Positions 2,425 to 57,913 of a stretch of DNA of 60,160 nucleotides are shown piece after piece. Source of the DNA: Candidatus Magasanikbacteria bacterium RIFOXYD1_FULL_40_23 (GTDB lineage Bacteria; Patescibacteriota; Patescibacteriia; Magasanikbacterales; GWA2-37-8). The position numbers were made by a program, and so were the translations under genes. The stretch covers positions 1 to 60,160 of the forward strand of contig MFRA01000001.1 of NCBI GenBank assembly GCA_001783215.1, given 5' to 3'. The notes under the pieces are model-generated. The model was not told where the DNA came from. It saw nothing but the letters and a program-made list of their open reading frames with translations, and did not search any database. The stretch's first letter is position 1. Each line of letters opens with the position of its first letter.

Positions 2425-2515
2425 CGTCCTACCTATTTTGCCAGAAACGGCATAACGGGTATGTTTTGCTCAAAGCATGGAATGGTTCCGTGCTTAGCAA
2501 AACTCAGGAGAAGCC

Positions 2516-3847
2516 ATGTTGGAACGCAGGATCAGAGAAGCGAGACAGAACGACTTTCAGTTTGTATCGGACATTATGGATGCGGCGTTAGCGCCGTATT
2601 ATGATGGCGACCATCGTGCGCACGCGTCGCGTATCTTTTGGACACACATTAGTGGTGGGAAGGACAGTGTCGGGCACTTCTCGGAAGAGCAGAAGATGTT
2701 CATTATCGAGGAGGGGAACACTCGTATCGGAATAATCAATGTCGTTGGTAAACGGCAAGGAACATGGAAGATTAGCCCGCTCATCATCGCTAATGATTTT
2801 CAAGGGAAAGCTGGTTGTGGTAGTGAGCTCCTTGCTTTTGCGGAACGGTATATTCGCGAGCGTGGGGCTAGGCAGGCATACTGTACAGTGGCAGAACAGA
2901 ATCGCTCTGCACTGGCTTTCTTTTATCGGAAAGGGTACGTATATGCTGGTCGTTCGGTTAGTCATTACAAGCCGGGCGTAACCGAGATTATGCTTTACAA
3001 ACTTTTCTACTCTAACGAGGATGAAGAGCGTATTGACAGAGCTAGCATCTCTGTGGTTCCGTTCGAGGAACGATATCGTGAGGGCGTTTATCGAGTGATT
3101 CTCAATAGTGATTTACCCAAGTATTTTCGTGGGGTGGATCGGTCTTGGGTCGATGCGCTTTTTACTGGCTACGAAAGGCGTGATACAGGTGAGGTGAATC
3201 AGAAGTACAAGCTTATCTATGTTGCTGTCGATCGTGCTGGTGAAGTCTTGGGTGTGGCTGGTGTTACGCCGAAAAAGGGTCAGCCAATTAAGATTATGCC
3301 ATGCGCGGCTAGCAACCCTCAGGCTTTTGCGGCGTTGATTGCTGATCTACCTCAGCATTTGCGACAGTTTGGTAGAAAGCTGTACACACATATCGTGCCA
3401 TCAGTTGAGGAAACTGTCGTTCTACAGCGTATGGGATGGTCACTTGATGCAATGATGCCCGGTGCATACCACGAAAATTATTGTACCCAACAGTGGGGGA
3501 ACAATATGGAGGACAACACGATGCGAACTTTGCGGGTGAAGAATCGGTTTTTTAACGAGATCATGTCACGGCGTAAGACCCTCGAAGTGCGGGTAGCTTA
3601 TGCAAATATCAAGAGTATTCGTGTGGGTGAAAACATTCAGCTGCTCACCGGCGCTAATTCAGGAATTGTTCGAGTGCGAGCTGTTCGTACTTACACTACC
3701 TTTGAGTTAATGCTCTCGGCGGAGGATTCTAGCAAGGTCCTGCCAGGCATGGATAAGCCAGAAGCGCTGAGCTTGCTACGAGGTATCTACCCAGCCGACA
3801 AGGAAAGGCTGGGTGTGGTGGTGCTCGACATCGAGCCAGTGCGATAA
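2516..3847 (+). CDS. GNAT acetyltransferase / second degenerate GNAT-like module / C-terminal ASCH domain fusion protein (GC-rich cassette)
   Basis: 443 aa. AGGAG SD at 2506-2510. N-terminal GNAT with acetyl-CoA motif FQGKAGCGSELL. C-terminal ~105 aa (from about 3524) matches the ASCH pattern (LRVKNRFFNEIMSRRKTLEVR...VGENI...GVVVLDIE). Confidence 0.8.
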   Translation: MLERRIREARQNDFQFVSDIMDAALAPYYDGDHRAHASRIFWTHISGGKDSVGHFSEEQKMFIIEEGNTRIGIINVVGKRQGTWKISPLIIANDFQGKAGCGSELLAFAERYIRERGARQAYCTVAEQNRSALAFFYRKGYVYAGRSVSHYKPGVTEIMLYKLFYSNEDEERIDRASISVVPFEERYREGVYRVILNSDLPKYFRGVDRSWVDALFTGYERRDTGEVNQKYKLIYVAVDRAGEVLGVAGVTPKKGQPIKIMPCAASNPQAFAALIADLPQHLRQFGRKLYTHIVPSVEETVVLQRMGWSLDAMMPGAYHENYCTQQWGNNMEDNTMRTLRVKNRFFNEIMSRRKTLEVRVAYANIKSIRVGENIQLLTGANSGIVRVRAVRTYTTFELMLSAEDSSKVLPGMDKPEALSLLRGIYPADKERLGVVVLDIEPVR

Positions 3848-3895
3848 GAGTAGTTCGAGTGCGGTCGACCAAATTGTAGGAACGCAAAAGAAAGA

Positions 3896-3926
3896 TCTGG
3901 AGCCCGCACGCTCCAGACCTATTTTT
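3896..3926 (+). terminator. GC-rich stem terminator of the GNAT-ASCH cassette
   Basis: tctggagc-ccgcac-gctccaga followed by cctattttt. Confidence 0.7.
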
Positions 3927-3978
3927 ACTTCAAAAATTGTTTTGGGTTGAAAATAGATATATAATTAGTAATAAATAT

Positions 3979-4311
3979 ATGAATACTTTTGATATAAACG
4001 TACAGGAACCATATTTTAGCAGTATTCTTTCTGGAAAAAAAACTGTAGAAGGCCGTTTAAATAAGGGTAAGTTTTTAGATATTCAAGTTGGTGATATTTT
4101 AAAAATAAACAATGAAGTTGAGTATAAAGTGGTGGAAAAAAACTCTTACAAAAATTTTAGAGAGATGATAGAAGCGGAAGGTTTGAGTAATGTTATACCG
4201 GATAAAAAAACAGTAGAAGAGGCTGTTGCGGTTTATTACAAATTTTATACTAAGGAAGACGAATTGAAATATGGGGTTGTTGGAGTAAAGATTGTTAGAC
4301 CTTTAGTTTAA
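3979..4311 (+). CDS. stand-alone ASCH domain protein (native low-GC composition)
   Basis: 110 aa from ATG 3979 (the track start 3937 is a TTG). Pattern QEPYFSSILSGKKTVEGRLNKGKF..VGDIL...GVVGVKIV is typical of ASCH/PUA-like barrels. Confidence 0.75.
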   Translation: MNTFDINVQEPYFSSILSGKKTVEGRLNKGKFLDIQVGDILKINNEVEYKVVEKNSYKNFREMIEAEGLSNVIPDKKTVEEAVAVYYKFYTKEDELKYGVVGVKIVRPLV

Positions 4312-4367
4312 ATGCAGTCTTGCTCCGTATCTTTAATTTTTATTATAAATCGTTTTAACAGTTTATC

Positions 4368-4388
4368 GCTTGGGCTACAAAATAAAAA
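4368..4388 (+). repeat. third, shorter direct copy of the tRNA-Glu 3' end motif
   Basis: gcttgggctacaaaataaaaa versus gttggggctacaaataaaaa. It again abuts a terminator hairpin. Confidence 0.5.
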
Positions 4389-4418
4389 CAGGCAAGAAAA
4401 TGCCTGTTTTTATTTTGT
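4377..4418 (+). terminator. rho-independent terminator
   Basis: acaaaataaaaacaggca-agaaaa-tgcctgtttttattttgt. Confidence 0.75.
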
Positions 4419-4427
4419 TTAAAACCG

Positions 4428-4456
4428 TTGACTTTTAATAAAAAAATTGCTAGTTT
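4428..4456 (+). promoter_or_regulatory. sigma70-like promoter of the kinase cassette
   Basis: TTGACT (4428-4433), 17 nt, TAGTTT (4451-4456) preceded by TGC. Layout is very similar to the promoter at 2396. Confidence 0.5.
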
Positions 4457-4490
4457 AAATCCCTGAACCTTGACAACAAAGGAGCCGCAA

Positions 4491-5402
4491 ATGAAAACGC
4501 TCAGCGATTGGAAGGGTCGCTTGATCGTTGGCCGTTACGAGCTGAGAGAGCATATCAACACAAGTGAGATGAGTTGTGTGTTCAAGGCTTGGGATTGCCA
4601 AGGTAAATGGGAGGTGATTGTAAAAATTGCCATTAATAGTTCTAGGTTTGATGATCGGGTAACTCGGCTAAAGCGCGAAACCGAAGCTCTTCGAACGCTT
4701 AAGCATCCGGCCATCGTGCGTTTGCTCGACTCTGGCCAAATCGACAGACTGTCATACTTCTTGGTGTTGGAATATATACAGGGTAACGATTTGCAGATGG
4801 CTCTTGAGCTCTTTCGTTACTTTTCTATCGATGAGTCTATCTCGGTGTTAGTGCAGGTGCTAGAAGCTCTGCATGAGGCGCATAAAAAAAATATGATTCA
4901 TCGCGATGTAAAATCTGCCAATATAATGATTGCTCCGGATGGAGTTAAGCTCGTCGATTTTGGTCTGGTGAAGTTTGACCCAGACTATAATCCTCTTAGA
5001 AAACCAACGGCCACTGGAAATATGGTTGGTACGAGGCTGTATGCTTCGCCCGAGCAAGCCATGGGTACTGGTAGGTATGATTGTCGTTCGGATCTATACT
5101 CTTGCGGAGTTGTTTTGTATGAAATCCTTACCCGTTCGTTGCCGTTTTACGAAATGGATGAGGATTCAGAAGAATGGGAGGATTATTGGAATCATCTGCG
5201 TCCATTTTCAAAAATATATAGCATCCCAAAAAAGGTGCAAGCAATCGTTTGGAAGGCGCTGTCCGTAGATCCAGATTTACGCTATCAAACCGCCGAAGAG
5301 ATGCGGGTCGCGCTATTGGCAGCAAGACCGTTCTCGTTGAGGCGGTTTGTCAAAGGGTTGTTGTCAAAGGCCCGGAGATATTGGAGGTGGTTTTGGGAAT
5401 AG
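4491..5402 (+). CDS. Hanks-type Ser/Thr protein kinase, kinase domain only with a basic/aromatic C-terminal tail (GC-rich cassette)
   Basis: 303 aa from ATG 4491 with AAGGAG at 4479-4484. VIVKI lysine, HRDVKSANIM catalytic loop, DFG, SPEQ (APE-like). Confidence 0.9.
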   Translation: MKTLSDWKGRLIVGRYELREHINTSEMSCVFKAWDCQGKWEVIVKIAINSSRFDDRVTRLKRETEALRTLKHPAIVRLLDSGQIDRLSYFLVLEYIQGNDLQMALELFRYFSIDESISVLVQVLEALHEAHKKNMIHRDVKSANIMIAPDGVKLVDFGLVKFDPDYNPLRKPTATGNMVGTRLYASPEQAMGTGRYDCRSDLYSCGVVLYEILTRSLPFYEMDEDSEEWEDYWNHLRPFSKIYSIPKKVQAIVWKALSVDPDLRYQTAEEMRVALLAARPFSLRRFVKGLLSKARRYWRWFWE

Positions 5403-5409
5403 TTATTAC

Positions 5410-5443
5410 GAGTCGTCTGCTATCACAGGCGACTCTTATTTTT
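5410..5443 (+). terminator. terminator of the kinase cassette
   Basis: gagtcgtct...aggcgactc stem followed by ttattttt. Confidence 0.65.
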
Positions 5444-5554
5444 GAAATGAGCGAGTGAAATAGCAGGTGAGGTATTTATAATCGCTTGTGAGTTATAAAT
5501 ATTGAACCTGGATATTTCCGAACGAATGAGAAAATATGTGGCTTTAGCCCATAT
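5444..5554 (+). repeat. intergenic repeat family 2, copy A
   Basis: GAGCGAG..TATTTATAA-N-TTATAAATA..CGAACGAATGAG..ATATGTGGCTTTAGCCCATAT. Near-identical to 51683-51861. Confidence 0.8.
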
Positions 5555-5620
5555 TTTTGGACTAACCGTCACTTTACCTTTGACATTGCTATAAAAATCT
5601 GGCATTGTATGTGAACCGTT

Positions 5621-6595
5621 ATGCAAACTGGATTTTGGAAAAAATTGAAAAAACCAATCTTTACTCTGGCGCCAATGGCCAATGTCACCGACGCTGCTTT
5701 TCGGCGCATAATTGCCAAATATGGCAAACCAGATGTAATGTGGACCGAATTTGTTTCCTGTGATGGACTAGTATCTAGAGGCAAAGACAAATTACTGATA
5801 GATTTTATGTATACAGAAAGCGAGCGGCCAATCGTGGCGCAAATTTTTGGTTCCAAACCAGAAAATTTTTATAAAACAGCTTTGCTTATACAGGAACTTG
5901 GGTTTGATGGTATAGATATAAATATGGGTTGCCCGGATAGAAATGTAGAAAAACAAGGTGCAGGTGCTTGCTTAATGAAAAATCCGTTGCTGGCTCAAGA
6001 AATTATTCGCGCCACGCAGAAAGGCGCAGGCAAATTACCGGTGTCTGTAAAAACTCGTATTGGCTATAACAAAAATACATTATCCGAATGGTTGCCGTAT
6101 TTATTAGAAACAGGGGTGGCTGCTATTACAGTGCACGCGCGTACTCGCAAAGAGATGTCGCTAGTTCCAGCCAATTGGGATACAGTGCGTGATGCGGTGG
6201 TTATGCGTGATAAATATGATAACTCAGAAAATAAAACTCTTATTTTGGGAAATGGCGATGTAAAAGATTTGGCCGATGGGGAAGTAAAAATAAAAGCAAC
6301 GGGTGCAGATGGTGTAATGATTGGTCGTGGTATTTTTGGTAATCCCTGGTTGTTCAATAGAGATGTGGATGTAAATACTATTTCCATCAAAGAAAAATTA
6401 AGCGTAATGATAGAGCATACTTATATGTTTGAAAAAATATTGGGTGAGCACAAAAACTTCGATATTATGAAGAAGCATTACAAGGCCTATGTAAACGGTT
6501 TTGATGGTGCCAAAGAGCTTCGGATAAAGCTAATGGAAGGGGCGAAAACTGCTGCGGATGTAGAAAAAATAGTGATTGATTTTTTGAGGGTGTAG
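5621..6595 (+). CDS. dus: tRNA-dihydrouridine synthase
   Basis: 324 aa. LAPMANVTD, NMGCP catalytic Cys, TIM-barrel Dus pattern. Confidence 0.9.
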   Translation: MQTGFWKKLKKPIFTLAPMANVTDAAFRRIIAKYGKPDVMWTEFVSCDGLVSRGKDKLLIDFMYTESERPIVAQIFGSKPENFYKTALLIQELGFDGIDINMGCPDRNVEKQGAGACLMKNPLLAQEIIRATQKGAGKLPVSVKTRIGYNKNTLSEWLPYLLETGVAAITVHARTRKEMSLVPANWDTVRDAVVMRDKYDNSENKTLILGNGDVKDLADGEVKIKATGADGVMIGRGIFGNPWLFNRDVDVNTISIKEKLSVMIEHTYMFEKILGEHKNFDIMKKHYKAYVNGFDGAKELRIKLMEGAKTAADVEKIVIDFLRV

Positions 6596-6610
6596 GTATA
6601 TATTAAAAGG

Positions 6611-7714
6611 ATGGAATTCAGCCATAAATTTTATAATACAACTACCTTGGCTTGGGAGGGTATGCGCCAAGCAATTTTGGAAGCCAAAACATCTGTTTAT
6701 TGGGAGATTTTTACGTTGGTGGATGATTTGGCCGGCAAACCGTTTATAGATCTATTGTGTGCCAAAGCTAAAGAAGGTCTTGATGTAAAACTGATTACCG
6801 ACGCTTTTGGTAGTTTTTCTTTATCCAATGATGCCGTAGCTCGTCTCAAAAATTCGGGGGTCAAATTTTTGGTATTTAATAATTTTCGTCCGGAATTTTC
6901 TTTGCAAAATTGGTGGCGCAAAGCTTGGCATCGTACCCACCGCAAAGTTTTGATTATAGATAGAGAAGTAGTTTTTATTGGGGGAGTAAACGTAGCCCAG
7001 TTTGCCACGCATTGGCAAGATTTACATTTGCGTTTAACTGGCAAAATAGTATTGCCGATTATGTTTAGCTTTGCCAAATCATATGTGCGGGCTGGGGGAG
7101 ACAAAAAAGAAGTAGAAGATTTATTGCGTCCAAAGTTATTCCCAAATCTAGAAGAGATTAGAGAAAAAATTAATTTTATTTTTCATTCTCCTTTTAGAAG
7201 TACCATTAAATCACCATTTAAGAATTTTTATAAAACTGCTTTGGGCACAGCCAAAGAAAAATTTAATTTACTTACTCCATATTATGTTCCGGACAAGCAT
7301 TTTTTAGAATTAGTTTCTCGCGCTAAAAAACGTGGTGTAAATGTAAATATTATTATTCCGTGGAGAAGTGATGAGCGTATAATGAGATACTTGGCATCTA
7401 TGTTATATGGCGTATCTGCCAAAGCCGGAGCTGTGTTTTATTTTTTGAAAAAAATGAATCATGGCAAGGCAGTAAGTGTAGATAATAAATTAGGAATGGT
7501 TGGGAGCGCCAATCTAACTCCGCGCAGTTTTTATATAAACCAAGAAGCCGGCGTCACTTTTTCTGATCAGCACATGGTGGAAGAGCTAAACAATATTTTG
7601 GATGATTGGAAGAGTGAAGCCATACCGCTGGCAGATTTAGGGTTAAATAATAAAGTAGGTTGGACCAGAAAGTTCAAAGATTGGTGGATGAATAAATTGC
7701 GGGATTATGTGTAG
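6611..7714 (+). CDS. phospholipase D family protein / cardiolipin synthase-like
   Basis: 367 aa with two HKD motifs (HRKVLIIDREVVFIGGVN and HGKAVSVDNKLGMVGSANL). Confidence 0.85.
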   Translation: MEFSHKFYNTTTLAWEGMRQAILEAKTSVYWEIFTLVDDLAGKPFIDLLCAKAKEGLDVKLITDAFGSFSLSNDAVARLKNSGVKFLVFNNFRPEFSLQNWWRKAWHRTHRKVLIIDREVVFIGGVNVAQFATHWQDLHLRLTGKIVLPIMFSFAKSYVRAGGDKKEVEDLLRPKLFPNLEEIREKINFIFHSPFRSTIKSPFKNFYKTALGTAKEKFNLLTPYYVPDKHFLELVSRAKKRGVNVNIIIPWRSDERIMRYLASMLYGVSAKAGAVFYFLKKMNHGKAVSVDNKLGMVGSANLTPRSFYINQEAGVTFSDQHMVEELNNILDDWKSEAIPLADLGLNNKVGWTRKFKDWWMNKLRDYV

Positions 7715-7758
7715 AGCCAAGTAATTTGGCTAAGGTTAGCTTCTAAATATTAAAATAA

Positions 7759-7792
7759 GCCCATTGACAAAATGGGTTTTTTGTGCTATACT
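7759..7792 (+). promoter_or_regulatory. combined terminator hairpin and promoter (the -35 lies in the hairpin loop)
   Basis: Hairpin agcccatt-gacaa-aatgggtt plus T-run. TTGACA 7764-7769, 17 nt, TATACT 7787-7792 with upstream TG. Confidence 0.6.
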
Positions 7793-7923
7793 GTTCTGTT
7801 GTTCTTTACAATTGGCATATCCCTGGTCTTAGAAGCAGTATGTTTAGTATCTTTTTTAGTAGGTAGTAAGCACACTGCTCACTAAGACAAGTTTAGCACG
7901 AAACCTCAGCGCAGGAGAGATTC

Positions 7924-8682
7924 ATGTTCCAAGATACCCATGGTGTGTTCGAGTCCGTTCAGGGTCTTACCCATCCGCTTCGTATGCTTCTGCTGGTGCC
8001 AGAAATTCTGGATCAGCTCAAGCTAGTTCTGTGGAGTGCTGACAGTGTCGGCACCGCCCAGATCCAGGATGCGATCCAGCAGGTCGGCATCGATGGTCCG
8101 AATGTGGTTATCAAGGGCACGCTCGGACTGGACTTCAGCGATTCTGCCCTGCCCGTCGATCATCGGCAGTGGAGTCTAAATCAGAAGCTCGAGGCGGCTT
8201 GGATCATCCTTGCTGCCAACTCGTTCGACGTCGGTTGTAATGACATCGGGCTTAACCTAAAGCATGATGATGCTGGGTTTCGCTTCTCCGACGAGGGGGG
8301 TGATTTCATGAAGGCTTGTCGTGAGGTGCAGAAGCAGCTCAGCGATGTGCTGCGCGGCGCTACCACCGTTCAGGCACTAGCCTCGGCCTTGCTCGACAAG
8401 ATCATGGCGAAGCTCGATGATTCCAAGGTCATCGACAAGATCGGGATCACCAACGAAGAGCGCAAGCATGTGGTGGTCTGGATCAAGCACCACTGGGTGC
8501 ACGAGACCGTGGCCTACGCCGCCTTCAAGCGAGGTCATGTCCTCTGCGAGGTGTACAACATCCTCGACGCGCTTGACTACTATTTCACCAACGGCCGGAC
8601 CCTCAAGGAAGAGGGGGTCACGTTCGATGGCGAGACTGGTATGGAGACAACGCCGCACTGTGGCGAGATCTTTCCCTACTAG
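7924..8682 (+). CDS. hypothetical protein, strongly GC-rich cassette
   Basis: 252 aa. AGGAG at 7913-7917. Hand count of 8401-8520 gives 57% GC. No recognisable motif. Shadow ORFs on both strands come from the high GC. Confidence 0.75.
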   Translation: MFQDTHGVFESVQGLTHPLRMLLLVPEILDQLKLVLWSADSVGTAQIQDAIQQVGIDGPNVVIKGTLGLDFSDSALPVDHRQWSLNQKLEAAWIILAANSFDVGCNDIGLNLKHDDAGFRFSDEGGDFMKACREVQKQLSDVLRGATTVQALASALLDKIMAKLDDSKVIDKIGITNEERKHVVVWIKHHWVHETVAYAAFKRGHVLCEVYNILDALDYYFTNGRTLKEEGVTFDGETGMETTPHCGEIFPY

Positions 8683-8813
8683 CGGGGATGCTATGCCAAG
8701 CACTGTTCTCAAGGTCGCGAGACCAAGGGATCGTGTTCAGCCGAGGTGTTGCTTCACCGCACGCCTCATCTAACAATCTTTTTTACTTCATAGAAATGAT
8801 TGAGGAATAAAAA

Positions 8814-8915: not shown

Positions 8916-10151
8916 ATGTCCAACAATGATCCGTTTGTAGGCGCTATACAACAGCTAGACAAACTAAAAGTTTTAGTAGGTTTGGAAGAAAATATTTACG
9001 AACAGCTCAAATCACCACAGAAATTTTTGGAAGTGTCTATTCCAGTCAAAATGGATAATGGGAAAATAAAAGTCTTTAAAGGTTTTCGTTCTCAATTTAG
9101 TAATGCTCGCGGTCCGTATAAAGGCGGTATTCGTTTTCATCCTCAAGTAAATGAATCAGAAGTAAAGGCGCTTAGTATGTGGATGGCGCTCAAAACTGCA
9201 GTTGTGGGTATTCCTCTTGGTGGTGGTAAGGGTGGTGTAATTGTAAATCCAAAAGAATTATCTGCTACAGAATTAGAAAAATTATCCCGTGGATACATTC
9301 AAGCAATTTATAAATTAATTGGTCCAGAGGTAGATGTGCCGGCTCCAGATGTTTATACCGATCCAAAAATAATGGGTTGGATGCTAGATGAGTATGAAAA
9401 AATAATGGGCAGACACTTGCCGGGAGTAATTACCGGTAAGCCGCTTAGTATCGGTGGCTCACAAGCCCGTGGTTACTCTACGGCTCAAGGTGGTTTTTAT
9501 GTTTTGCAACAGGCGGTGAAAAAAATGAGTTTGGCAAATACACGAGTAGCTGTACAAGGCTTTGGTAATGCGGGTGCAACTATGGCCAAAATTGTATCCG
9601 AGAATGGTTACAAAGTAGTGGCTGTATCCGATTCTAAAGGCGGAATATATAGTGAGCAAGGTTTGGATATGCAAAAACTGTTTGCTCACAAAGAGCAAAC
9701 TGGTTCTGTAGTTAATTTTGCGGAAGCTTCAAGTATTGGTGAAAATATTTTGTCTCAAGACGTGGATGTTCTTGTATTGGCCGCCCTAGAAAACAGTGTG
9801 ACTGGCGAAAATGCGAATCAGATAAAAGCCAAATTAATAATAGAGCTTGCCAATGGTCCGATAACCCAGGAAGGCGATGCAGTTTTGGCAAGTGCTGGGG
9901 TAGTGGTTGTGCCAGATATTTTGGCCAATGCGGGTGGGGTGGCGGTAAGCTATTTTGAACAGGTACAAAATGCCTATAATTACTATTGGGAAGAAAAAGA
10001 AGTTTTAGAAAAGCTAGAAAAAATGATGATAAAATCTTTTGATGAAGTTTGGGGTAGAAAAGAAAAGTATAATAGTGATATGCGTATGGGCGCCTACGCC
10101 TTGGCAGTAGAAAGAATTGGCCAGGCTATGAAAGACAGGGGTTGGTCGTAG
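8916..10151 (+). CDS. gdhA: NAD(P)-dependent glutamate dehydrogenase
   Basis: 411 aa. KGGIRFHP and GIPLGGGKGG motifs, plus a Rossmann GFGNAG. Confidence 0.92.
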   Translation: MSNNDPFVGAIQQLDKLKVLVGLEENIYEQLKSPQKFLEVSIPVKMDNGKIKVFKGFRSQFSNARGPYKGGIRFHPQVNESEVKALSMWMALKTAVVGIPLGGGKGGVIVNPKELSATELEKLSRGYIQAIYKLIGPEVDVPAPDVYTDPKIMGWMLDEYEKIMGRHLPGVITGKPLSIGGSQARGYSTAQGGFYVLQQAVKKMSLANTRVAVQGFGNAGATMAKIVSENGYKVVAVSDSKGGIYSEQGLDMQKLFAHKEQTGSVVNFAEASSIGENILSQDVDVLVLAALENSVTGENANQIKAKLIIELANGPITQEGDAVLASAGVVVVPDILANAGGVAVSYFEQVQNAYNYYWEEKEVLEKLEKMMIKSFDEVWGRKEKYNSDMRMGAYALAVERIGQAMKDRGWS

Positions 10152-11538: not shown

Positions 11539-11577
11539 AAAAGAGCCCTTGACGGCTCTTTTTTCGTATGTTATATT
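11539..11577 (+). promoter_or_regulatory. terminator-loop promoter of the hrcA operon
   Basis: Hairpin aaaagagcc-cttgac-ggctctttt. TTGACG 11549-11554, 17 nt, TATATT 11572-11577. Confidence 0.6.
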
Positions 11578-11602
11578 ATCACTCGTAAGGAAAGAGTGCT
11601 AA
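11576..11602 (+). promoter_or_regulatory. CIRCE operator (HrcA binding site)
   Basis: TTATCACTC-N9-GAGTGCTAA versus consensus TTAGCACTC-N9-GAGTGCTAA (1 mismatch). It overlaps the -10. Confidence 0.8.
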
Positions 11603-11608
11603 CGCACT

Positions 11609-11678
11609 GTCATTCTGAACGAAGTGAAGAATCCCTTTTATCCAAACGAGAGGGATCCTTCGTTCCACTCAGGATGAC
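11609..11678. repeat. palindromic intergenic repeat family 1, copy 1 (in the hrcA 5' UTR)
   Basis: GTCATTCTGAACGAAGTGAAGAATCCC...GGGATCCTTCGTTCCACTCAGGATGAC. Second copy at 58563-58632. Confidence 0.8.
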
Positions 11679-11685
11679 ATTGTAA

Positions 11686-27658: not shown

Positions 27659-27686
27659 TTGACTTTAATCAATCATATTGTATACT
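27659..27686 (+). promoter_or_regulatory. sigma70-like promoter of a small GC-rich cassette
   Basis: TTGACT 27659-27664, 16 nt, TATACT 27681-27686. Confidence 0.55.
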
Positions 27687-27709
27687 CCTTAAACAAGGAG
27701 GATTTTGCC

Positions 27710-27967
27710 ATGTCCGAACAAAGGCATAAAGTGGGGGATGTGCTTTCAAATGGCGTTGTTATAACAGAGGAGTTGTTGGAAGCAATGGCCAAGTTTGAAT
27801 CGCAGGGCGTAGATCCTGAGGATGAAGCTCGGATTAATGCTTTGCTTCGTCAAGGTGCTGAAGAGAACGCACGTATTCTGAAGGATTCTCGTGCATGTCG
27901 TTGTTATACAGAAGGCGGAGTGCGCTTAACTGGCGCACATTGTCCGATGCACACTGTGTACCGCTAA
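27710..27967 (+). CDS. hypothetical small protein with C-terminal Cys/His cluster (GC-rich cassette)
   Basis: 85 aa from ATG 27710 with AAGGAGG at 27695-27701. C-terminus is CRCYTEGGVRLTGAHCPMH. Confidence 0.65.
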   Translation: MSEQRHKVGDVLSNGVVITEELLEAMAKFESQGVDPEDEARINALLRQGAEENARILKDSRACRCYTEGGVRLTGAHCPMHTVYR

Positions 27968-27992
27968 ATATCATGGCTTTGGCAAAAAATCA

Positions 27993-28015
27993 GGGAGCAG
28001 TATAAAACTGCTCCC
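27993..28015. terminator. shared hairpin terminator (stronger for the minus-strand WbaP-like gene)
   Basis: gggagcag-tataaaa-ctgctccc. The T-run is on the minus-strand side. Confidence 0.6.
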
Positions 28016-28035
28016 TTAATATTAAAAAGTAAATT

Positions 28036-31031: not shown

Positions 31032-31472
31032 ATGTTTTCTCCAGAGAATCCCATGCGAGAGAATGTGAAAAATTTGGATAAACCCTTTAGCGTAGACCAA
31101 GACGGTAATCTGGTAACAATGGCCGAATACGTTGCTGTCTACGGGCACGAGAGGGTACGGGCTGCAATTCACAGTCCCACGCCGGATCAGACCCGTACAA
31201 TCAAGGCCGTAGGCAAGTTTACCAAGGATGATTTGTTTAAATTGGCCGAAGCGTTCGTTTTGGACGGAGGCGACGATGTGGCTGTAGTATCAATTAGTGG
31301 TAATAGCTATGATAAACAGCAGAGGATCGACTCTGTTCGTAATAGGGGTTCGTACGGACAACAATTTGTCCATGGTCTGCACGGTATGATGCGCATGACC
31401 GATAGCGCGATCCGAGGTGGGTGGATCGAGTTTGTGGTGGTGCCGGCATATCTGGAAATTCCAGATCTGTAA
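31032..31472 (+). CDS. hypothetical protein (GC-rich cassette inside the glycan cluster)
   Basis: 146 aa. AGGAGG at 31022-31027. No recognisable motif. Confidence 0.7.
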   Translation: MFSPENPMRENVKNLDKPFSVDQDGNLVTMAEYVAVYGHERVRAAIHSPTPDQTRTIKAVGKFTKDDLFKLAEAFVLDGGDDVAVVSISGNSYDKQQRIDSVRNRGSYGQQFVHGLHGMMRMTDSAIRGGWIEFVVVPAYLEIPDL

Positions 31473-44371: not shown

Positions 44372-44917
44372 ATGGCAAAACAAAATGGGAGCCTGCTCTT
44401 TTTCGAGTTTTCCCTACTGCCCATTTCAAGATCGTTGCATGGTGTTAAAGCCAGCGTTGGTTATCAGCTTTCATTTTTGGTAATCGGCGATCTCTTGCTT
44501 GGTAGGTTGCCAGATGGTGTGGCGGCCAGGCTCAAGTCGCCAATTTCGGCCGATGTGATGGCTATGGTTGCTGCTGGTAACTCAAACGGTGTTGCTCCCG
44601 AGCGAGCGAGGGCCGCAATTATGGTAGCTGAAACTTTGTTGGCAATCTGTGAAATATTGCAACCGAAGTTGGTGGGTAGTGATAAGCGTAAGAAGCGATT
44701 TTATCCCATAGAGGTAGATAAAAACAACGGCAATCTGCTTCTAAAGGAAAAGGTTGTAGCTACTGCCAATCAGATCGTATCTCTTGTTAGTAAGAGAACG
44801 GCGGAAAATGCGAGGATCAAGTATTTGGTGGTACTCGTAATGTGGAAAGTTTTTTTGGGGATTTTGAGGGAAGGTCGAATAAGTGTGCCGGGGTTGCGCA
44901 AGAAGATCTCCAAATAG
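44372..44917 (+). CDS. hypothetical protein (GC-rich cassette)
   Basis: 181 aa from ATG 44372 with GGAGG at 44362-44366. Extended -10 TGTGTTATAGT at 44331-44341. Confidence 0.65.
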   Translation: MAKQNGSLLFFEFSLLPISRSLHGVKASVGYQLSFLVIGDLLLGRLPDGVAARLKSPISADVMAMVAAGNSNGVAPERARAAIMVAETLLAICEILQPKLVGSDKRKKRFYPIEVDKNNGNLLLKEKVVATANQIVSLVSKRTAENARIKYLVVLVMWKVFLGILREGRISVPGLRKKISK

Positions 44918-44932
44918 TTTGTTCATTTAGAT

Positions 44933-44967
44933 GGCTCTTGGTTTATTCCGAGGGCTGTTTTATTTTT
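44933..44967 (+). terminator. terminator of the cassette
   Basis: ggctcttgg / ccgagggct stem (with G-U pairs) followed by gttttattttt. Confidence 0.5.
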
Positions 44968-46375: not shown

Positions 46376-46403
46376 TTGACAAAATTACAAAAAAACGTAA
46401 TAG
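46376..46403 (+). promoter_or_regulatory. possible promoter overlapping the RNase stop
   Basis: TTGACA 46376-46381, 16 nt, TAATAG 46398-46403. Confidence 0.4.
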
Positions 46404-46467: not shown

Positions 46468-47007
46468 ATGCAAAAACTTCGTTCGCTAGAAGGCTCTGTA
46501 TTAGAAGTCTTTACAGTTGTTCCGTATGGAGTTGAGCCAATTGAAGTCGTGCTCAATGAGCGTGAATACAAGATCCGCGACCAAGGCGTGAGCAAGTTCT
46601 TCGGTGGAGGTAAGCTTGTGGGAATCCTTGTTCCTATAGAAGTGTCTCTGGTGACATTTGTTAGCGCTCATGCAACTGGGCGTATAGATCCGCACGAGAT
46701 TTGGGATTGGGGCAAAGGTAGAAATCTTGCGCCATTTTTTCCAGAGCATCTTTGCGGACTTGTGATGAACTATCCAGGTTCGCAGAAGAATCGAAAGATT
46801 ATCGCCTTGGGTGGTGAAGAAAAAGGGCAAGTCCTTTGTCTTTGGGGAAAGGGTGATTGGAAGGGTGCAAGCACTTTCTCTAGCGTTGGAAACTGGGGAG
46901 GCGTCGGATCTGATGCCTACACGTTTGGTTTTGTTCCAAAGAAACCTCAATTTGGTTCTCTAGAAGTTCCCTCCCTTTCGAGTGGGACATCAAGGATTAT
47001 TCGTTGA
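46468..47007 (+). CDS. hypothetical protein (GC-rich cassette)
   Basis: 179 aa from ATG 46468 with AAGGAG at 46456-46461. In-frame alternative ATG at 46450. No motif. Confidence 0.65.
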   Translation: MQKLRSLEGSVLEVFTVVPYGVEPIEVVLNEREYKIRDQGVSKFFGGGKLVGILVPIEVSLVTFVSAHATGRIDPHEIWDWGKGRNLAPFFPEHLCGLVMNYPGSQKNRKIIALGGEEKGQVLCLWGKGDWKGASTFSSVGNWGGVGSDAYTFGFVPKKPQFGSLEVPSLSSGTSRIIR

Positions 47008-47158: not shown

Positions 47159-48025
47159 ATGGCTCAAGCTGATAAGTACAGCATCCGAGATTTAAAGAAA
47201 GACTTCCCAAATGATGATATTTGTTTAGAGTATATCTTTAGCAACTTACACGCTAAGACTTGTTCTTGCGGTGGCCGATATAACCGAGTAAAAGGTAGGC
47301 TCAAATTTCAATGCTCTAAGTGTCGTTTTCAGATTGCCCCGCTAGTAGGTACAATTTTTGAAAAGACTAGCACGCCTTTAACCTTATGGTTCCACGCCCT
47401 CTTTATCTTCTCTAATGCTAAGAGCGGTGTTTCTAGTAAAGAAATGGAAAGACAACTTGGGGTAACTTATAAATGTGCGTGGAGGATTTTAAAACTAATC
47501 AGAGAATCTTTAAAACAAGACGGCCTACCACTTAAAGGCGATGTGGAAATGGATGAAGGGTTCTTTGGTGGTAAAGGCGACGCTGGCAAGAACAATGAAA
47601 TGTTAAGTGTGGTAATGAATAAGAAGACTAAAGTAATCGGGGCAGTAGAACGAAAGGGTAGAATGAGAGCCAAAGCCGTAAAAGATGTATCGGCTAAAAC
47701 TATAGCGACGTTTTTAGACCATAATATCTATCCGATTGATACAAGATTGCTCACTGATAAGAGTAATCGCTATAATCTGGCTTCTTGGGGCTATAACAGA
47801 CAATCAGTTAATCACGGAAACAAAGAATACGTCCGAGGGGACGTACACGTTAATAACGTAGAGAGTTTTTGGTCGCACTTAAAGAGAAGTATTAAAGGCA
47901 CGCACAAAGCTATTTCAAAGAAGCACTTCCAGTCTTACCTTGACGCTTTCGTTTGGCACCGAAACAATCGGTACAACGACAGAGAGCGGTTTGGGACTTT
48001 GCTCGGTGCTTTATTACAGTCTTAA
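47159..48025 (+). CDS. IS1595-family (ISXO2-like) DDE transposase with N-terminal zinc ribbon
   Basis: 288 aa. CSCGGRYNRV...QCSKCRFQ zinc ribbon. DDE_Tnp_IS1595-like body (VEMDEGFFGG...LTDKSNRY...VNNVESFWSHLKR). Confidence 0.88.
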   Translation: MAQADKYSIRDLKKDFPNDDICLEYIFSNLHAKTCSCGGRYNRVKGRLKFQCSKCRFQIAPLVGTIFEKTSTPLTLWFHALFIFSNAKSGVSSKEMERQLGVTYKCAWRILKLIRESLKQDGLPLKGDVEMDEGFFGGKGDAGKNNEMLSVVMNKKTKVIGAVERKGRMRAKAVKDVSAKTIATFLDHNIYPIDTRLLTDKSNRYNLASWGYNRQSVNHGNKEYVRGDVHVNNVESFWSHLKRSIKGTHKAISKKHFQSYLDAFVWHRNNRYNDRERFGTLLGALLQS

Positions 48026-48752: not shown

Positions 48753-48798
48753 TATTCCAACGATTATGCTTAACCCTTGACATATGGTAAAAAAGTCC

Positions 48799-48827
48799 TT
48801 GACGGTCTTTTTTGTTTTTGTTATATT
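48799..48827 (+). promoter_or_regulatory. terminator-loop style promoter
   Basis: Imperfect hairpin aaaagtcc-ttgac-ggtctttt. TTGACG 48799-48804, 17 nt, TATATT 48822-48827. Confidence 0.55.
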
Positions 48828-48832
48828 AATAC

Positions 48833-49006
48833 TGCACAACCAACAAGCGTATTATCTAAACAGAAGTTCTTTGAAAATTTAACCAGTATAAAATGTTGTC
48901 ACATCACCCGCTTGCGGGTTGGTTGTGCAAAACTCAGCCCCACTTCAAAGAACATTCCGTTTAGAGATTTGGGTGGTTGACGACATTTTGCACTGGTTTT
49001 TTGTTT
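48833..49006 (+). promoter_or_regulatory. highly structured leader RNA (candidate attenuator or riboswitch-like element)
   Basis: Three long-range complementarities: 48833-48849/48909-48929, 48854-48875/48944-48968 and 48881-48900/48979-48998. The last is followed by a U-run. Confidence 0.45.
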
Positions 49007-49083: not shown

Positions 49084-49272
49084 GTGCAAAGTATGGAAGC
49101 AGAACTCATCTGTCGTCCCTATATCACGCTCAGAAATGGGCGCCGATTATGGGCGCATGAGGTTGGTAAGCAGGCATTCTGTTTTCCCGCGGTACCAGGC
49201 TACTGGGAACGTAGGAAAATAAAAGAAGCAGCCTTTTTACAGCTACCTCTCCCACTACCAGAGCCTAAATAA
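49084..49272 (+). CDS. hypothetical 62-aa protein (GC-rich cassette)
   Basis: GTG 49084 lies 9 nt after AAGAGGA (49068-49074). Alternative ATG at 49093. No motif. Confidence 0.5.
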   Translation: MQSMEAELICRPYITLRNGRRLWAHEVGKQAFCFPAVPGYWERRKIKEAAFLQLPLPLPEPK

Positions 49273-51629: not shown

Positions 51630-51654
51630 ATCCCCCTGTTTGGGGGATTTTTTG
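51630..51654 (+). terminator. rho-independent terminator
   Basis: atccccc-tgttt-gggggat followed by tttttg. Confidence 0.8.
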
Positions 51655-51667
51655 TTGGCTTTGGATG

Positions 51668-51676
51668 TGTTATAAT
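51668..51676 (+). promoter_or_regulatory. extended -10 promoter element
   Basis: TGT-TATAAT. No good -35. Confidence 0.4.
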
Positions 51677-51682
51677 GGAACT

Positions 51683-51861
51683 GAGCGAGAGAGATAGTCA
51701 GTGAGATATTTATAACCGTTTGCGAGTTATAAATATTGACTCTGGATATTTCCGAGCGAAGGACATTATTTACAAGCGACGTGAGCGAAAAGGACGTTTA
51801 CGTACTTTTCTGAACAAGCACAGTAAATATGGGAGCCTATATATGTGGCTTTAGCCCATAT
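51683..51861 (+). repeat. intergenic repeat family 2, copy D (with about 65-nt internal insertion)
   Basis: Collinear with 5444-5554 and ends in the identical ATATGTGGCTTTAGCCCATAT. Confidence 0.8.
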
Positions 51862-51905
51862 ACTTAAAGTAACTTAATCGGTGTCGTTTTTCGACATAAG
51901 TATTT

Positions 51906-55023: not shown

Positions 55024-55030
55024 GTAGCCT

Positions 55031-56035: not shown

Positions 56036-56036
56036 T

Positions 56037-56507: not shown

Positions 56508-56509
56508 GT

Positions 56510-56971
56510 ATGCAATTAACCAGTCCGGTTTTTAATACAAATGAAAAAATTCCTGCAAAATATACTTGTGATGGAGAAAATATATCTCCACCACTAGAGA
56601 TTTCTGGTGTGCCAGAGGGTGCTAAATCTTTGGTTTTAATAATGGATGATCCGGATATTCCGGAAGCGGCCAAAAAAAGTTTTAACATTGAAGTTTGGGA
56701 TCATTGGGTGGTGTTTAATATACCTGTTGAGGTTAAAATTATTGAAGAGGGAATGAATCCGCCTGGGGTACTGGGTAAAAACACTAGAGATAATATGGCT
56801 TACGGCAGCCCTTGTCCACCAGACAAGGAACATCGTTATTTTTTCAAATTATATGCTTTAGACATTGTTTTAGAGCTTCCAGCCGGCTCAAGTAAGGCAG
56901 GGGTAGAGAAAGCTATGCTTGGACATGCGTTAGAGAAAGTCGAATTAGTAGGTAGGTATGAAAGGGGTTGA
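56510..56971 (+). CDS. YbhB/YbcL family PEBP (Raf kinase inhibitor-like) protein
   Basis: 153 aa. DPDIPE, HRYFFKLYALD. Confidence 0.88.
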   Translation: MQLTSPVFNTNEKIPAKYTCDGENISPPLEISGVPEGAKSLVLIMDDPDIPEAAKKSFNIEVWDHWVVFNIPVEVKIIEEGMNPPGVLGKNTRDNMAYGSPCPPDKEHRYFFKLYALDIVLELPAGSSKAGVEKAMLGHALEKVELVGRYERG

Positions 56972-56996
56972 CATATTCCAGCTTTTCATATATACT
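56968..56996 (+). promoter_or_regulatory. sigma70-like promoter of rplU
   Basis: TTGACA 56968-56973 (overlaps the PEBP stop), 17 nt, TATACT 56991-56996. Confidence 0.6.
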
Positions 56997-57030
56997 AATC
57001 GCACTATTCTAATCATTCTTAAATTCATAT

Positions 57031-57336
57031 ATGTACGCAGTAATTGCTACCGGCGGGAAACAATATCTGGTAAAAACCGGAGATGTACTAAAAATAGAAA
57101 AATTGCCAGTTGACGAAGGTTCAAAAGTAGTTTTTGATAAGGTTTTACTTACTGCCAAAGAAGATGGAACCGATGTAAAAGTTGGTATGCCATACTTGGA
57201 TGGAGTAACTGTAGAAGCTACCCTAGAAAAACAAGGCAAAGAACGCACATTGCGCGTAGAGAAATTCAAACGCAAAGTTCGTTACCACAAAGTACACGGT
57301 CAAAGACAGAGATATAGCTTGGTAAAGATTTCTTAA
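57031..57336 (+). CDS. rplU: 50S ribosomal protein L21
   Basis: 101 aa. MYAVIATGGKQY. Confidence 0.93.
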   Translation: MYAVIATGGKQYLVKTGDVLKIEKLPVDEGSKVVFDKVLLTAKEDGTDVKVGMPYLDGVTVEATLEKQGKERTLRVEKFKRKVRYHKVHGQRQRYSLVKIS

Positions 57337-57356
57337 AATTCAAAGATAAATTAAAG

Positions 57357-57380
57357 ACCGCCTAATTTGGGTGGTTTTTA
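57357..57380 (+). terminator. terminator after rplU
   Basis: accgcc-taatttg-ggtggt followed by tttt. Confidence 0.55.
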
Positions 57381-57446
57381 GTTTATTGTTGGTCATTGAC
57401 AAACAGGCTTTTTTTGTGTAACGTTATAAAACGTTCTTTTATAATA

Positions 57447-57496
57447 TTTTCAGCCTTATTTTTGCCTTTAATTAATGGCAAAAATAAGGCTGAAAG
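57447..57496. other. 20-bp-stem hairpin/palindrome (16 consecutive Watson-Crick pairs, then A-U/G-U extension) in a cassette leader
   Basis: ttttcagccttatttttgcc - tttaattaat - ggcaaaaataaggctgaaag. Confidence 0.85.
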
Positions 57497-57533
57497 TTAT
57501 CCAGTCGAATCAACCACAAAAAAGGCGGATCTT

Positions 57534-57872
57534 GTGAAAAACCCACTCATTCTGATGGCGACTCTATCTTTTTGTGTTTTCACAGTCTTGGTTGTTTGCT
57601 TGCCGCTCAATCAAGAAAAGACGGTAAGTAATGGTAAGATCGTAGAGAAGTATCATAAAGATGAGAACACGAGACTAGTGCATACGATGGTAGGCCTACA
57701 CACTGTCTTGAGAAGTGTTGATGTGCCAGAGCGGTGGGTTTTTGTCCTGAAGCAGCGTGTCAGTAAGTCATCCAGAGAGTGGAGGAAGGGAGAAGTTGAT
57801 GTCAGCAAAGAGATTTTCGATTCTCTTGAGGTTGGCGATCAGTATCTTCCCGCGGAAGTTCCAAGCAAGTAG
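57534..57872 (+). CDS. hypothetical small membrane-anchored protein (moderately GC-rich cassette)
   Basis: 112 aa from GTG 57534 (alternative ATG 57555). TM LILMATLSFCVFTVLVVCL. The track start 57396 is the TTG of a TTGACA box. Confidence 0.5.
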   Translation: MKNPLILMATLSFCVFTVLVVCLPLNQEKTVSNGKIVEKYHKDENTRLVHTMVGLHTVLRSVDVPERWVFVLKQRVSKSSREWRKGEVDVSKEIFDSLEVGDQYLPAEVPSK

Positions 57873-57890
57873 TGGTTCGCATAAGAATAA

Positions 57891-57913
57891 GGCCGTTGCT
57901 ACAAGCAACGGCC
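57891..57913. terminator. hairpin between convergent genes
   Basis: ggccgttgc-tacaa-gcaacggcc, 9 bp perfect. The T-rich tract is on the minus-strand side. Confidence 0.55.

Follow-up and report, generated by a model that had tools for sequence, protein, structure and literature searches.

GC-rich, Shine-Dalgarno-led accessory genes in variable gaps of the core gene order of a Magasanikbacteria genome

Patescibacteria, or bacteria of the Candidate Phyla Radiation (CPR), have tiny genomes in which roughly half of the genes lack a known function, and the ways in which they gain and exchange genes are poorly understood. We examined a stretch of 60,160 nucleotides (hereafter, the window) from contig MFRA01000001.1 of a Candidatus Magasanikbacteria, an uncultured patescibacterial lineage of groundwater, in which nine GC-rich open reading frames (ORFs) are scattered through a low-GC core genome. 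A first-pass annotation had described these ORFs as promoter-to-terminator, single-gene cassettes and had read them either as foreign genes captured one at a time by an unrecognized route or as a dispersed set of functionally linked effectors. All nine exist (2516-3847, 4491-5402, 7924-8682, 27710-27967, 31032-31472, 44372-44917, 46468-47007, 49084-49272 and 57534-57872; cassettes 1 to 9, all on the forward strand) and, where the longest ORF opens earlier on a TTG codon, it is the proposed ATG or GTG start that has a Shine-Dalgarno (SD) sequence. The genes defined in the window number 63, nine candidate cassettes and 54 backbone genes. We compared them with about 40 short related loci (labeled L and a number, with homologous proteins labeled P), following backbone synteny across about 30 species. 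RsmH and other core proteins placed the window in Candidatus Magasanikbacteria, and the nearest species representatives share 76-78% identity in RsmH and up to 95% in TypA. Two of the loci have close ties to named genomes: L097 is Magasanikbacteria RIFOXYC2_FULL_42_28 (MFQZ01000003) and L094 belongs to a relative of Magasanikbacteria GW2011_GWA2_56_11.

Composition and expression signals of the nine cassettes

The backbone genes of the window, whose overall GC content is 38.9%, had a mean GC of 0.378±0.031 and a GC at third codon positions (GC3) of 0.321±0.045. The nine cassettes ranged from 0.45 to 0.56 in GC (z 2.3-5.9) and were the nine GC-richest genes of the window, a complete separation from the backbone (Mann-Whitney U 486 of a possible 486, p about 2e-6). 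The contrast first seen by eye was thus borne out by GC, GC3 and codon usage, and the hand counts behind it were exact (68/120 G+C at 8401-8520; 21/60 at 9001-9060). Synonymous-codon log-likelihoods under a backbone model were low for the nine ORFs (z -2 to -10), and GC rose and dropped within about 40 nt of the ORF ends. The pooled, composition-normalized dinucleotide signature of the cassettes was also deviant (delta* 0.139 vs 0.037±0.012 for random backbone sets, z 8.5); among single genes, 7924-8682 was the lone clear outlier (0.265, with single backbone genes at 0.090±0.040) and 44372-44917 was native-like (0.062). GC3 was strongly raised (0.49-0.72) in six of the ORFs. In 27710, 46468 and 49084 the GC excess was found chiefly at codon positions 1 and 2 (GC3 z 1.5-2.0) and, therefore, reflects amino-acid composition. 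All nine ORFs showed coding periodicity, strong and in the order GC3>GC1>GC2, and eight of the nine products had protein-level homologs; they are genuine protein-coding accessory genes. A non-coding RNA origin of the GC-rich blocks was rejected, as no Rfam family matched them at gathering score. The comparison also agreed with the first-pass annotation in that the products do not resemble each other (no mutual similarity, common domain or motif was found among the nine) and that seven carry no recognizable motif: these seven had no match in Pfam, NCBIfam or PADLOC, and only the 57534 product had weak PHROGs matches. Nor did we find a shared flanking repeat, inverted-repeat motif or regulatory sequence around the nine cassettes.

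The most discriminating feature of the cassettes was the SD sequence, which had been noted before them in the first-pass annotation without its significance being realized. We measured it as the anti-SD pairing energy of the -22 to -4 region, taking -6 kcal/mol or below as strong. The backbone was essentially SD-free (median, -0.25 kcal/mol), with only 4 of 50 genes reaching -6 and with leaders composed of A and T alone before dnaK (13765), pyrG (26026) and rplU (57031). All nine cassettes, by contrast, had strong and correctly spaced SD sequences (-7.1 to -15.1 kcal/mol; p 2e-6 vs the backbone). The AT-rich accessory genes of the window, a small ASCH gene and an IS1595-family transposase, had none. 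In relatives, SD sequences were counted as pattern matches at annotated or ORF-derived starts and preceded 3/5 GC-rich and 0/7 other genes in L101, 6/6 and 2/8 in L080, and 3/3 and 0/8 in L094. In the loci for which only GC-rich genes were counted, they preceded 1/1 in L096, 1/2 in each of L007, L009 and L012, and 0/2 in L005 and L006. Including the window, the totals are roughly 25/32 GC-rich genes and 6/73 others. SD-poor translation initiation also occurs in Bacteroidota. An SD-poor core has precedent closer to this lineage: Tsurumaki et al. (2022; PMC9297842) reported an anti-SD motif for only 48% of Parcubacteria and noted that, in part of the group, SD helices may fail to form. The backbone of the window fits this description, but that study makes no mention of a minority class made up of accessory genes that are GC-rich and SD-led within such genomes, and our literature searches found no description of one in CPR genomes.

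Two of the loci used in these counts have features of their own. On L080, a CPR-like contig of 40% GC, three paralogous small genes (99-106 aa) lie within 2.6 kb on the reverse strand (6919-7233, 8267-8587 and 9204-9503); all are SD-led and two have a GC3 of 0.85. Along the 13-kb L094 locus, gene GC ranges from 0.35 to 0.67 and GC3 from 0.28 to 0.91, and the AT-rich genes are the odd ones out, a mirror of the window.

The arrangement is not a product of chimeric assembly. We found 11 contigs that encode the 252-aa product of 7924-8682 exactly and 20 that carry the neighboring L21. They derive from different samples and different assemblers (ENA, JGI-type and Logan assemblies), and the junctions that we compared were 99.8-100% identical. 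Recurrence of the same arrangement in independent assemblies thus largely excluded the mis-assembly that the first-pass annotation had wanted checked. We also rejected presence/absence polymorphism inside the population, all contigs with an identical L21 representing one strain.

Promoters and terminators were less regular than first described. The first-pass annotation had placed a promoter before most cassettes, yet good promoter-like sites were found only before 7924 (11/12 plus TG), 27710 and 46468, and the frequency of such sites near the cassettes was not above that in shuffles. Similarly, the claim that the cassettes usually end in a GC-rich terminator of their own held after 3847, 5402 and 44917, and for 49272 with a terminator 160 nt beyond the gene. 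The hairpins after 27967 (27992-28016) and 57872 (57891-57913, of recR), on the other hand, are the terminators of convergent neighbors, and none was found after 8682 or 47007. Upstream of cassette 3, a terminator/promoter module (7757-7792, forward strand) carries the TTGACA -35 box in its hairpin loop followed by TATACT, and similar 45-nt modules with TTGAC in the loop lie at 11539-11583, before hrcA, and at 48789-48833. Arbiol, Comeau and Krisch reportedly described in 2010 promoter-early stem-loop (PeSL) modules of T4-type phages, which share the placement of a -35 box in a hairpin loop ahead of a -10 box. The modules of the window differ in that they also precede ordinary genes and accompany only one or two of the nine cassettes, and a role in recombination lacked support. 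A role as cassette borders was rejected for the same reason, as genes such as hrcA have them too. Two other repeated elements were seen between genes: a 94-nt intergenic repeat (5436-5529 and 51670-51763, 82% identity) and a 72-nt palindromic hairpin (TGTCATTCTGA...TCAGGATGACA; 11608-11679 and 58562-58633, 75%) resembling miniature inverted-repeat transposable elements (MITE) or repetitive extragenic palindromes (REP).

Variable slots in a conserved gene order

The order of the backbone genes is conserved in about 30 related species, and Pfam searches of the called genes identified the genes flanking the cassettes as they had been named. We compared seven of the gaps (slots) in up to 30 species and found that, between syntenic core genes, the slots are empty or hold orthologous or unrelated genes. 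Between typA-tRNA-Glu and dus, the window carries the GNAT-ASCH and ASCH genes and a kinase; L101 has three other genes (two with GC3 0.85-0.89) and a 53% identical kinase, L067 a 48% identical kinase and other ORFs, and L072 unrelated genes. The slot between PLD and GDH/YidC holds a 252-aa ORFan in the window and RarA plus a different GC-rich orphan of 133 aa in L101, whereas PLD and GDH abut in L066; elsewhere it mostly contains an MBL-fold gene, with an additional GC-rich secreted protein in L064 and L078. The S8 protease|epimerase slot is an empty 45-bp gap in L096. The slot flanked by the genes at 43574 and 45019 (g43574|g45019) is occupied by another family in L005 and L006 and by lipoprotein-like genes (GC3 0.86-0.92) in L007, L009 and L012, and is empty in L013-L015. 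Lastly, rplU|recR is empty in L006, L013 and L014 and has other genes in L007, L010, L015 and L016.

Six cassettes (2516, 7924, 31032, 46468, 49084 and 57534) were missing from their own slot in all relatives examined, several of those slots being empty there. By the synteny comparison that the first-pass annotation had proposed as a check, most of the cassettes are thus not ancestral; 27710, the kinase and 44372 have same-slot homologs. The count of nine independent insertions does not stand, as 27710 is ancestral, the kinase occupies the same slot in two relatives and 44372 does so in one. GC-rich genes are common in the relatives too: 28% of 225 poorly conserved ORFs exceeded the GC of their own core by more than 0.05. 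Only about eight of 45 GC-rich slot fillers had any Pfam domain, and their functions were mixed (asparaginase, amino-acid kinase, aminotransferase); several had signal or lipoprotein-like N-termini. None of the 45 was an integrase, transposase or homing endonuclease. The presence of such fillers across relatives makes the phenomenon lineage-wide rather than confined to the window.

The sister loci L005 and L006 captured one slot in the process of change. Their core proteins are 95-98% identical, with identities of 0.87-0.93 at conserved fourfold-degenerate sites, but the genes in the slot are only 30% identical, with a fourfold-site identity of 0.16. At the DNA level, identity was about 97% along each of the flanking core genes, fell to about 70% in the intergenic DNA to either side and was random over a GC-rich block of roughly 700 bp. 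The alignment thus places the crossovers at the edges of the core genes, as for a flank-anchored homologous replacement of the entire inter-core segment, with a donor related enough to have the same flanks. A swap by ordinary homologous replacement makes an unrecognized capture route unnecessary, and the slots can be described as ordinary variable hot spots. Orthologs that share a slot in the more distant pair L007 and L012 both have a fourfold-site GC of 0.77-0.88, although the fourfold-site identity of their core genes is only 0.36-0.43.

The backbone itself may have moved. The GC of conserved fourfold-degenerate sites in core genes was 0.28-0.42 in the window and 0.43-0.61 in the sister species L096 and L101, which indicates a recent AT shift in the lineage of the window or, alternatively, a GC shift in its sisters. 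An AT shift of the backbone would exaggerate the contrast with imported genes.

The nine cassettes and their families

Cassette 1 (2516-3847; SD AGGAG) encodes a GNAT-GNAT-ASCH acetyltransferase-like protein of 443 aa (GC 0.49, GC3 0.50; Pfam GNAT 1.8e-10 and ASCH 1.6e-7) and has no counterpart between typA and dus in L101, L067 or L072. Its family is large, with 878 matches and more than 100 clusters at at least 53% identity over the full length, and its named members belong to Magasanikbacteria, other Patescibacteria and an archaeon. The genomic contexts differ, yet a small ASCH gene is adjacent every time and the GC of the large gene is above that of the surrounding DNA each time. In the window this partner (3937-4311, forward strand; Pfam ASCH 4.7e-11) has a GC of 0.285 and no SD (anti-SD pairing energy +0.5). 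The pairs at 2516-4311 in the window, 671-2394 in L092, 5532-7335 in L093 and 6001-7771 in L094 show a GC gap between the two genes of 0.14-0.26, the small partner being AT-rich in the window, L092 and L094 but close to the average of the locus in L093. Cassette 2 (4491-5402; SD AAGGAG; terminator 5410-5435) is a stand-alone Hanks-type Ser/Thr kinase of 303 aa (GC 0.46, GC3 0.49; Pkinase 2e-41). Although PADLOC assigned it to the PD-T4-6 system (E 3e-65), a PknB-type NCBIfam model fitted equally well (2.7e-63, below cut-off), and we regard the assignment as a generic match to the Hanks kinase domain that leaves an anti-phage role as a candidate. Its subfamily comprises about 22 clusters (42-65% identity), among which one is named Magasanikbacteria. 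Its fourfold-site GC in the window is 0.56, compared with 0.30-0.42 in the core; the same-slot copy of L101 has a GC of 0.50, whereas that of L067 is not GC-rich.

The tRNA-Glu gene at 2075-2147 precedes these two cassettes and forms, together with a candidate structured RNA, another GC-rich stretch (2051-2400) that lies outside the nine. The candidate RNA (about 165 nt; 2190-2358, forward strand; 3555-3700 in L101) directly follows tRNA-Glu(ctc) and contains GAGGAAAGUCC. Its 5' end has a 17-nt complementarity to the T-arm and acceptor 3' strand of the tRNA and, at its 3' end (2342-2352), it has a copy of the 11 nt with which the tRNA terminates. The predicted fold has an energy of -69 kcal/mol (z -3.5) and no Rfam match was found even at E<=1. 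In the sister L101, about 95% of the aligned columns are conserved, compared with 36-59% at the fourfold sites of neighboring genes, a 32-nt deletion takes the tip of a hairpin and leaves its stem, and one compensatory pair is present. A tRNA-targeted island at this site seems unlikely: the only repeat is the 11-nt copy, inside the conserved candidate RNA, and there is no integrase.

Cassette 3 (7924-8682) is the most extreme in composition (252 aa; GC 0.563, GC3 0.715) and combines an SD with the strong promoter of the 7757-7792 hairpin. It is an ORFan: an exhaustive HMMER search, as made for the orphan products against 1.84 billion cluster representatives, matched only its own cluster, and no viral match was found. 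A single-sequence AlphaFold model was unusable (pLDDT 38.5).

Cassette 4 (27710-27967) encodes a Cys/His-rich protein of 85 aa behind a promoter at 27659-27686 and a strong SD. L096 has an ortholog (P0009, 55%) in the same pyrG|WbaP-like slot that kept the TTGACT...TATACT promoter, the SD and the shared terminator hairpin. Fourfold-site identity between the two genes is 0.38, within the range of the neighboring core genes (0.36-0.39), and the cassette has no fourfold-site GC excess. By this comparison, of a same-slot ortholog with conserved expression signals and saturated synonymous sites, cassette 4 is ancestral to at least two species and not recently acquired. Conservation of its SD across a saturated divergence also suggests that the anti-SD, whose 16S gene lies outside the window, is functional in this lineage. 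In both species, the leader has a hairpin (27680-27700; 4970-4992 in L096) in which the SD (AAGGAG or GGAGGAG) is paired to a CUCCU(U) located directly downstream of the -10 box (-7.1 and -7.6 kcal/mol), so that translation may be controlled through SD sequestration.

Cassette 5 (31032-31472; SD AGGAGGA) encodes a 146-aa protein of unknown function (GC 0.485, GC3 0.51). A 51% identical homolog on the CPR-like contig L080 is GC-rich and SD-led there too. A distant homolog (30%) on a contig of 58% GC adjoins Bil, Eco57I and M78 genes in a defence island; the family also includes an FHA fusion and had no viral match. Cassette 6 (44372-44917; terminator 44929-44960) has the strongest SD (GGGGAGG) and encodes a 181-aa member of an uncharacterized family (about 25 clusters) in which an N-terminal membrane helix is common. 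Its only same-slot homolog, in L008 (55%), is not GC-rich there. An AF2 model of the family was confident (pLDDT 89) and had no fold match in PDB or BFVD; the family had no phage match.

Cassette 7 (46468-47007; 179 aa; SD AAGGAG; promoter-like site at 46376) heads a 3.1-kb islet that further comprises the IS1595 transposase, an AT-rich ORF and cassette 8; in L005, L006 and L014 the islet is missing and the slot is empty. It is a homolog of a diversity-generating retroelement (DGR) target, being 30% identical to P0021 of L097 (tblastn 1.5e-15) over an alignment that spans the C-terminal variable repeat (VR) region. P0021 itself is a textbook target: its VR and template repeat (TR) form a 123-nt pair in which 15 of 16 mismatches change a template A to any base, bAvd and reverse transcriptase (RT) genes lie downstream, and its gene has a GC of 0.59 in surroundings of 0.33-0.37. 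The complete DGR spans 5001-7621 of L097 (target, 5001-5738; VR, 5615-5737; TR, 6088-6210; bAvd, 6229-6564, reverse strand; RT, 6566-7621), with an AbiEi/AbiEii pair upstream; the homolog of this target in the window has no Pfam match. No TR, Avd, RT or repeat of the 3' end of cassette 7 was found within the window. Paul et al. reportedly described in 2017 DGR variable proteins of CPR bacteria, to which the family of cassette 7 is alike through P0021 and its adenine-specific mismatches; unlike them, the window has a single such cassette and none of the accompanying components. DGRs were rejected as a general cause of GC-rich genes, as RT, Avd or adenine-biased repeats occurred only in L097 and L098. 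The transposase within the islet (47159-48025, forward strand; DDE_Tnp_IS1595 2.1e-32) has native-like GC and no SD. A 64% identical homolog sits in the same g45019|g49538 slot of L013 (8517-9380) and L031 (1978-2844), on the reverse strand in both, so that its orientation is opposite in two of three species; it may be a slot-specific or long-resident insertion sequence.

Cassette 8 (49084-49272; GTG start; SD GAGGA) encodes 62 aa with the motif ICRPxITLRNGkRLyAxEVGKkAFCF. Its family has about 14 clusters of proteins of 42-62 aa and is present on two viral contigs. In the low-GC phage contig L100 (2699-5165; IMG/VR UViG_3300011218_000001), a protein with the ICRPYITLRNG motif directly follows a holin, an endolysin, an XRE-type regulator and an ImmA/IrrE M78 peptidase, a position at the lysis/lysogeny junction that is accessory-gene territory. 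Cassette 9 (57534-57872; GTG start; SD-like AAGGCGGA; GC3 0.50), which some gene callers skip, encodes 112 aa with a hydrophobic, signal-like N-terminus and is probably secreted or membrane-anchored. Apart from its weak PHROG matches, it has few homologs: P0011, and P0013 with its lipoprotein-type signal.

Origin and meaning of the GC-rich class

We propose, at a probability of roughly 60%, that the cassettes are accessory genes of hot spots and that flank-anchored recombination exchanges them within a GC-richer, SD-using pool of Magasanikbacteria and other Patescibacteria, with occasional links to phages and retroelements. The slots, limited in number and lying between syntenic core genes, would serve as recombination hot spots across the lineage. 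Genes would enter and be replaced by homologous recombination anchored in the conserved flanking genes, presumably after DNA uptake (competence is plausible for CPR bacteria) and a double crossover. The source pool would be richer in GC than the AT-shifted chromosome and would use SD-led translation, whereas the native genes are almost SD-free. Genes landing in a gap would then pass through a filter of expressibility, being expressed only if they brought their own ribosome-binding site (RBS) and, often, their own promoter and terminator. Because a gap would require such signals, the survivors would come to resemble promoter-to-terminator cassettes. Not all of the nine are of one age: 27710 is ancestral, some relatives share the kinase and 44372, and the other six are lineage-specific. 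Nor are they one system. Cassette homologs are found mostly in Magasanikbacteria or Patescibacteria, which speaks against the higher-GC host or phage that had been suggested as donor. The ties to mobile elements are the 49084 family, found on phage contigs, and the 46468 family, which includes a proven DGR target. A phage origin of the class was rejected, viral matches being limited to the 49084 family: 7924, 31032, 46468 and 57534 had none, and 44372 and 57534 had none in INPHARED.

This proposal has a close counterpart in the horizontal gene transfer (HGT) hot spots between core genes, or genomic islets, that Oliveira, Touchon and Rocha reportedly described in 2017, many of which are said to lack mobile-element genes and to turn over by homologous recombination in their flanks. 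As in those hot spots, a fixed pair of core genes encloses different or no content across related genomes, and L005 and L006 show a flank-anchored replacement. The units described here differ in that most are single small orphans, are GC-richer rather than AT-richer than the host and have a distinct initiation signal; further, their density in the window is high, with seven slots in 60 kb.

Several observations weigh against an origin by import. A donor was not identified for any cassette, and 7924, the most extreme of them, has no homolog among the 1.84 billion representatives. In every host examined, GC-richness relative to the surroundings persists in the GNAT-ASCH genes (four genomes), in the 31032 family, in the DGR target and in the L007/L012 pair; such a persistent excess is not predicted by simple import and amelioration and requires frequent re-import or active maintenance. 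A single GC-rich donor also leaves unexplained the constant AT-rich ASCH partner of the GNAT-ASCH gene. Furthermore, the replacement event was shown in the sister pair L005 and L006 rather than in the genome of the window, the swapped cassettes of these two loci are without a good SD, and the SD counts in relatives are, as noted, pattern matches.

These observations give some room to a tentative alternative, which we consider rather unlikely, in which the GC-rich, SD-led state is actively maintained and marks a resident second class of genes rather than a passing trace of import. Composition would then be held by selection (on mRNA structure or on an SD-dependent translation that is limited by rare codons or specific to some conditions) or by GC-biased gene conversion at the hot spots, and initiation would differ in mode from that of the SD-free housekeeping genes. 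Consistent with this, GNAT-ASCH genes exceeded the GC of their surroundings in all four genomes (0.49/0.39, 0.565/0.46, 0.53/0.48 and 0.61/0.52), and the excess recurs in the DGR target (0.59 vs 0.33-0.37), in the 31032 family and, for the kinase, in two species. The L007/L012 orthologs have also kept their fourfold-site GC of 0.77-0.88 despite a near-saturated divergence of the core; the SD of 27710, conserved between species with saturated synonymous sites, implies a working anti-SD; and SD and GC are associated in several genomes. However, 27710, the clearly ancestral cassette, has ameliorated at fourfold sites, the 44372 and kinase homologs of L008 and L067 are not GC-rich, the sharp drop in GC at the ORF ends, free of gradients, is unlike that of conversion tracts, and replacement by import was directly shown once. 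Extended to the whole lineage, the alternative becomes a doubtful, though possible, scheme of two translational compartments in Magasanikbacteria and perhaps other Parcubacteria: an AT-rich, SD-free core and a set of rapidly exchanged, GC3-rich, SD-led and mostly orphan genes in the slots, whose composition would be maintained and for which SD initiation would be a separate channel for interaction, defence or diversifying genes, the set including a DGR target.

A dedicated and unrecognized mechanism of single-gene capture or mobility, be it integron-like, moron-like via an unknown phage or element, or mediated by a retroelement, seems improbable. Its appeal lies in the units being single genes that bear their own expression signals, in the ties of one family to a DGR and of another to phages, in the IS1595 copy within one islet and in hairpin modules of terminator and promoter that recall the PeSL elements of T4-type phages. 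Juhala, Hendrix and colleagues are said to have described in 2000 phage morons as extra genes that stand singly among conserved ones, bring a promoter and a terminator with them and deviate in composition. The cassettes are like morons in being single extra genes with a composition different from their neighbors, and some of them have a promoter and a terminator of their own. Their backbone, however, is a cellular core genome (typA, dnaK, pyrG, rplU and recR) rather than a prophage, a convincing promoter is combined with an own terminator in only three or four of the nine, and only one family occurs in phages. They resemble integron cassettes as single-gene units of diverse and mostly unknown function; unlike them, they are dispersed and have their own expression signals, and no attC, IntI integrase or array was found in the window. 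Nor does the window look like a classical genomic island: no integrase or recombinase was found among annotated or scanned ORFs, in agreement with the first-pass annotation, and the sole mobility gene is the IS1595 transposase. No HNH, GIY-YIG or LAGLIDADG Pfam domain of homing endonucleases was present in the nine cassettes or the 45 fillers of relatives. More generally, the search for an integrase, an attC-like site, a target duplication or a common junction motif found none, hairpin/promoter modules stand before ordinary genes too (hrcA, for example), DGR components are limited to L097 and L098, and five of the six cassette families searched in viral and phage collections had no match. The breakpoints of the documented swap at the edges of core genes are also those of ordinary homologous replacement.

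The functionally linked effector or defence set of the first-pass annotation we regard as very improbable. Several products are of an interaction or defence type (the kinase matching PD-T4-6 models, the DGR-target homolog, the small protein with a signal-like N-terminus and the protein with a homolog beside a Bil system), and the signal or lipoprotein-like N-termini of several fillers in relatives point in the same direction. The cassettes have, however, no domain, motif or regulatory sequence in common, their ages and phyletic patterns differ widely with no co-occurrence in relatives, the fillers of relatives include such enzymes as asparaginase, amino-acid kinase and aminotransferase, and the PADLOC match is expected for any Hanks-type kinase. 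Hardly credible is an artefact, whether of chimeric assembly or of GC-rich non-coding DNA that looks gene-like since stop codons are rare in it: 7924-8773 does have stop-free frames on both strands, as first reported, some callers skip 57534-57872 and the GC-rich blocks of several relatives were initially read in the wrong frame, but the junctions are identical in many independent assemblies, protein-level homologs exist for eight of the nine products, codon periodicity (GC3>GC1>GC2) is strong, an SD at the correct spacing precedes every ORF, the 44372 family has a confident fold and Rfam had no match.

Under the preferred reading of hot-spot exchange within a GC-richer, SD-using pool, the window reveals no new mobile element. 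What is new here is an apparently undescribed dichotomy of GC and SD in a CPR lineage; otherwise, the units are HGT hot-spot islets, moron-like in form. In the window and about 40 related loci, accessory genes are concentrated in a few swap-prone gaps of an otherwise rigid gene order, and an exchange between near-identical genomes can involve everything that a gap contains. As a class, the exchanged genes are recognizable by their high GC and by the classical RBS that the genome's own genes nearly lack. If general, the combination of GC3 and SD would provide a simple sequence rule for recognizing flexible genes, probably for host interaction or defence, in these genomes. It would also offer a handle on whether SD-dependent translation persists in lineages thought to have abandoned it.

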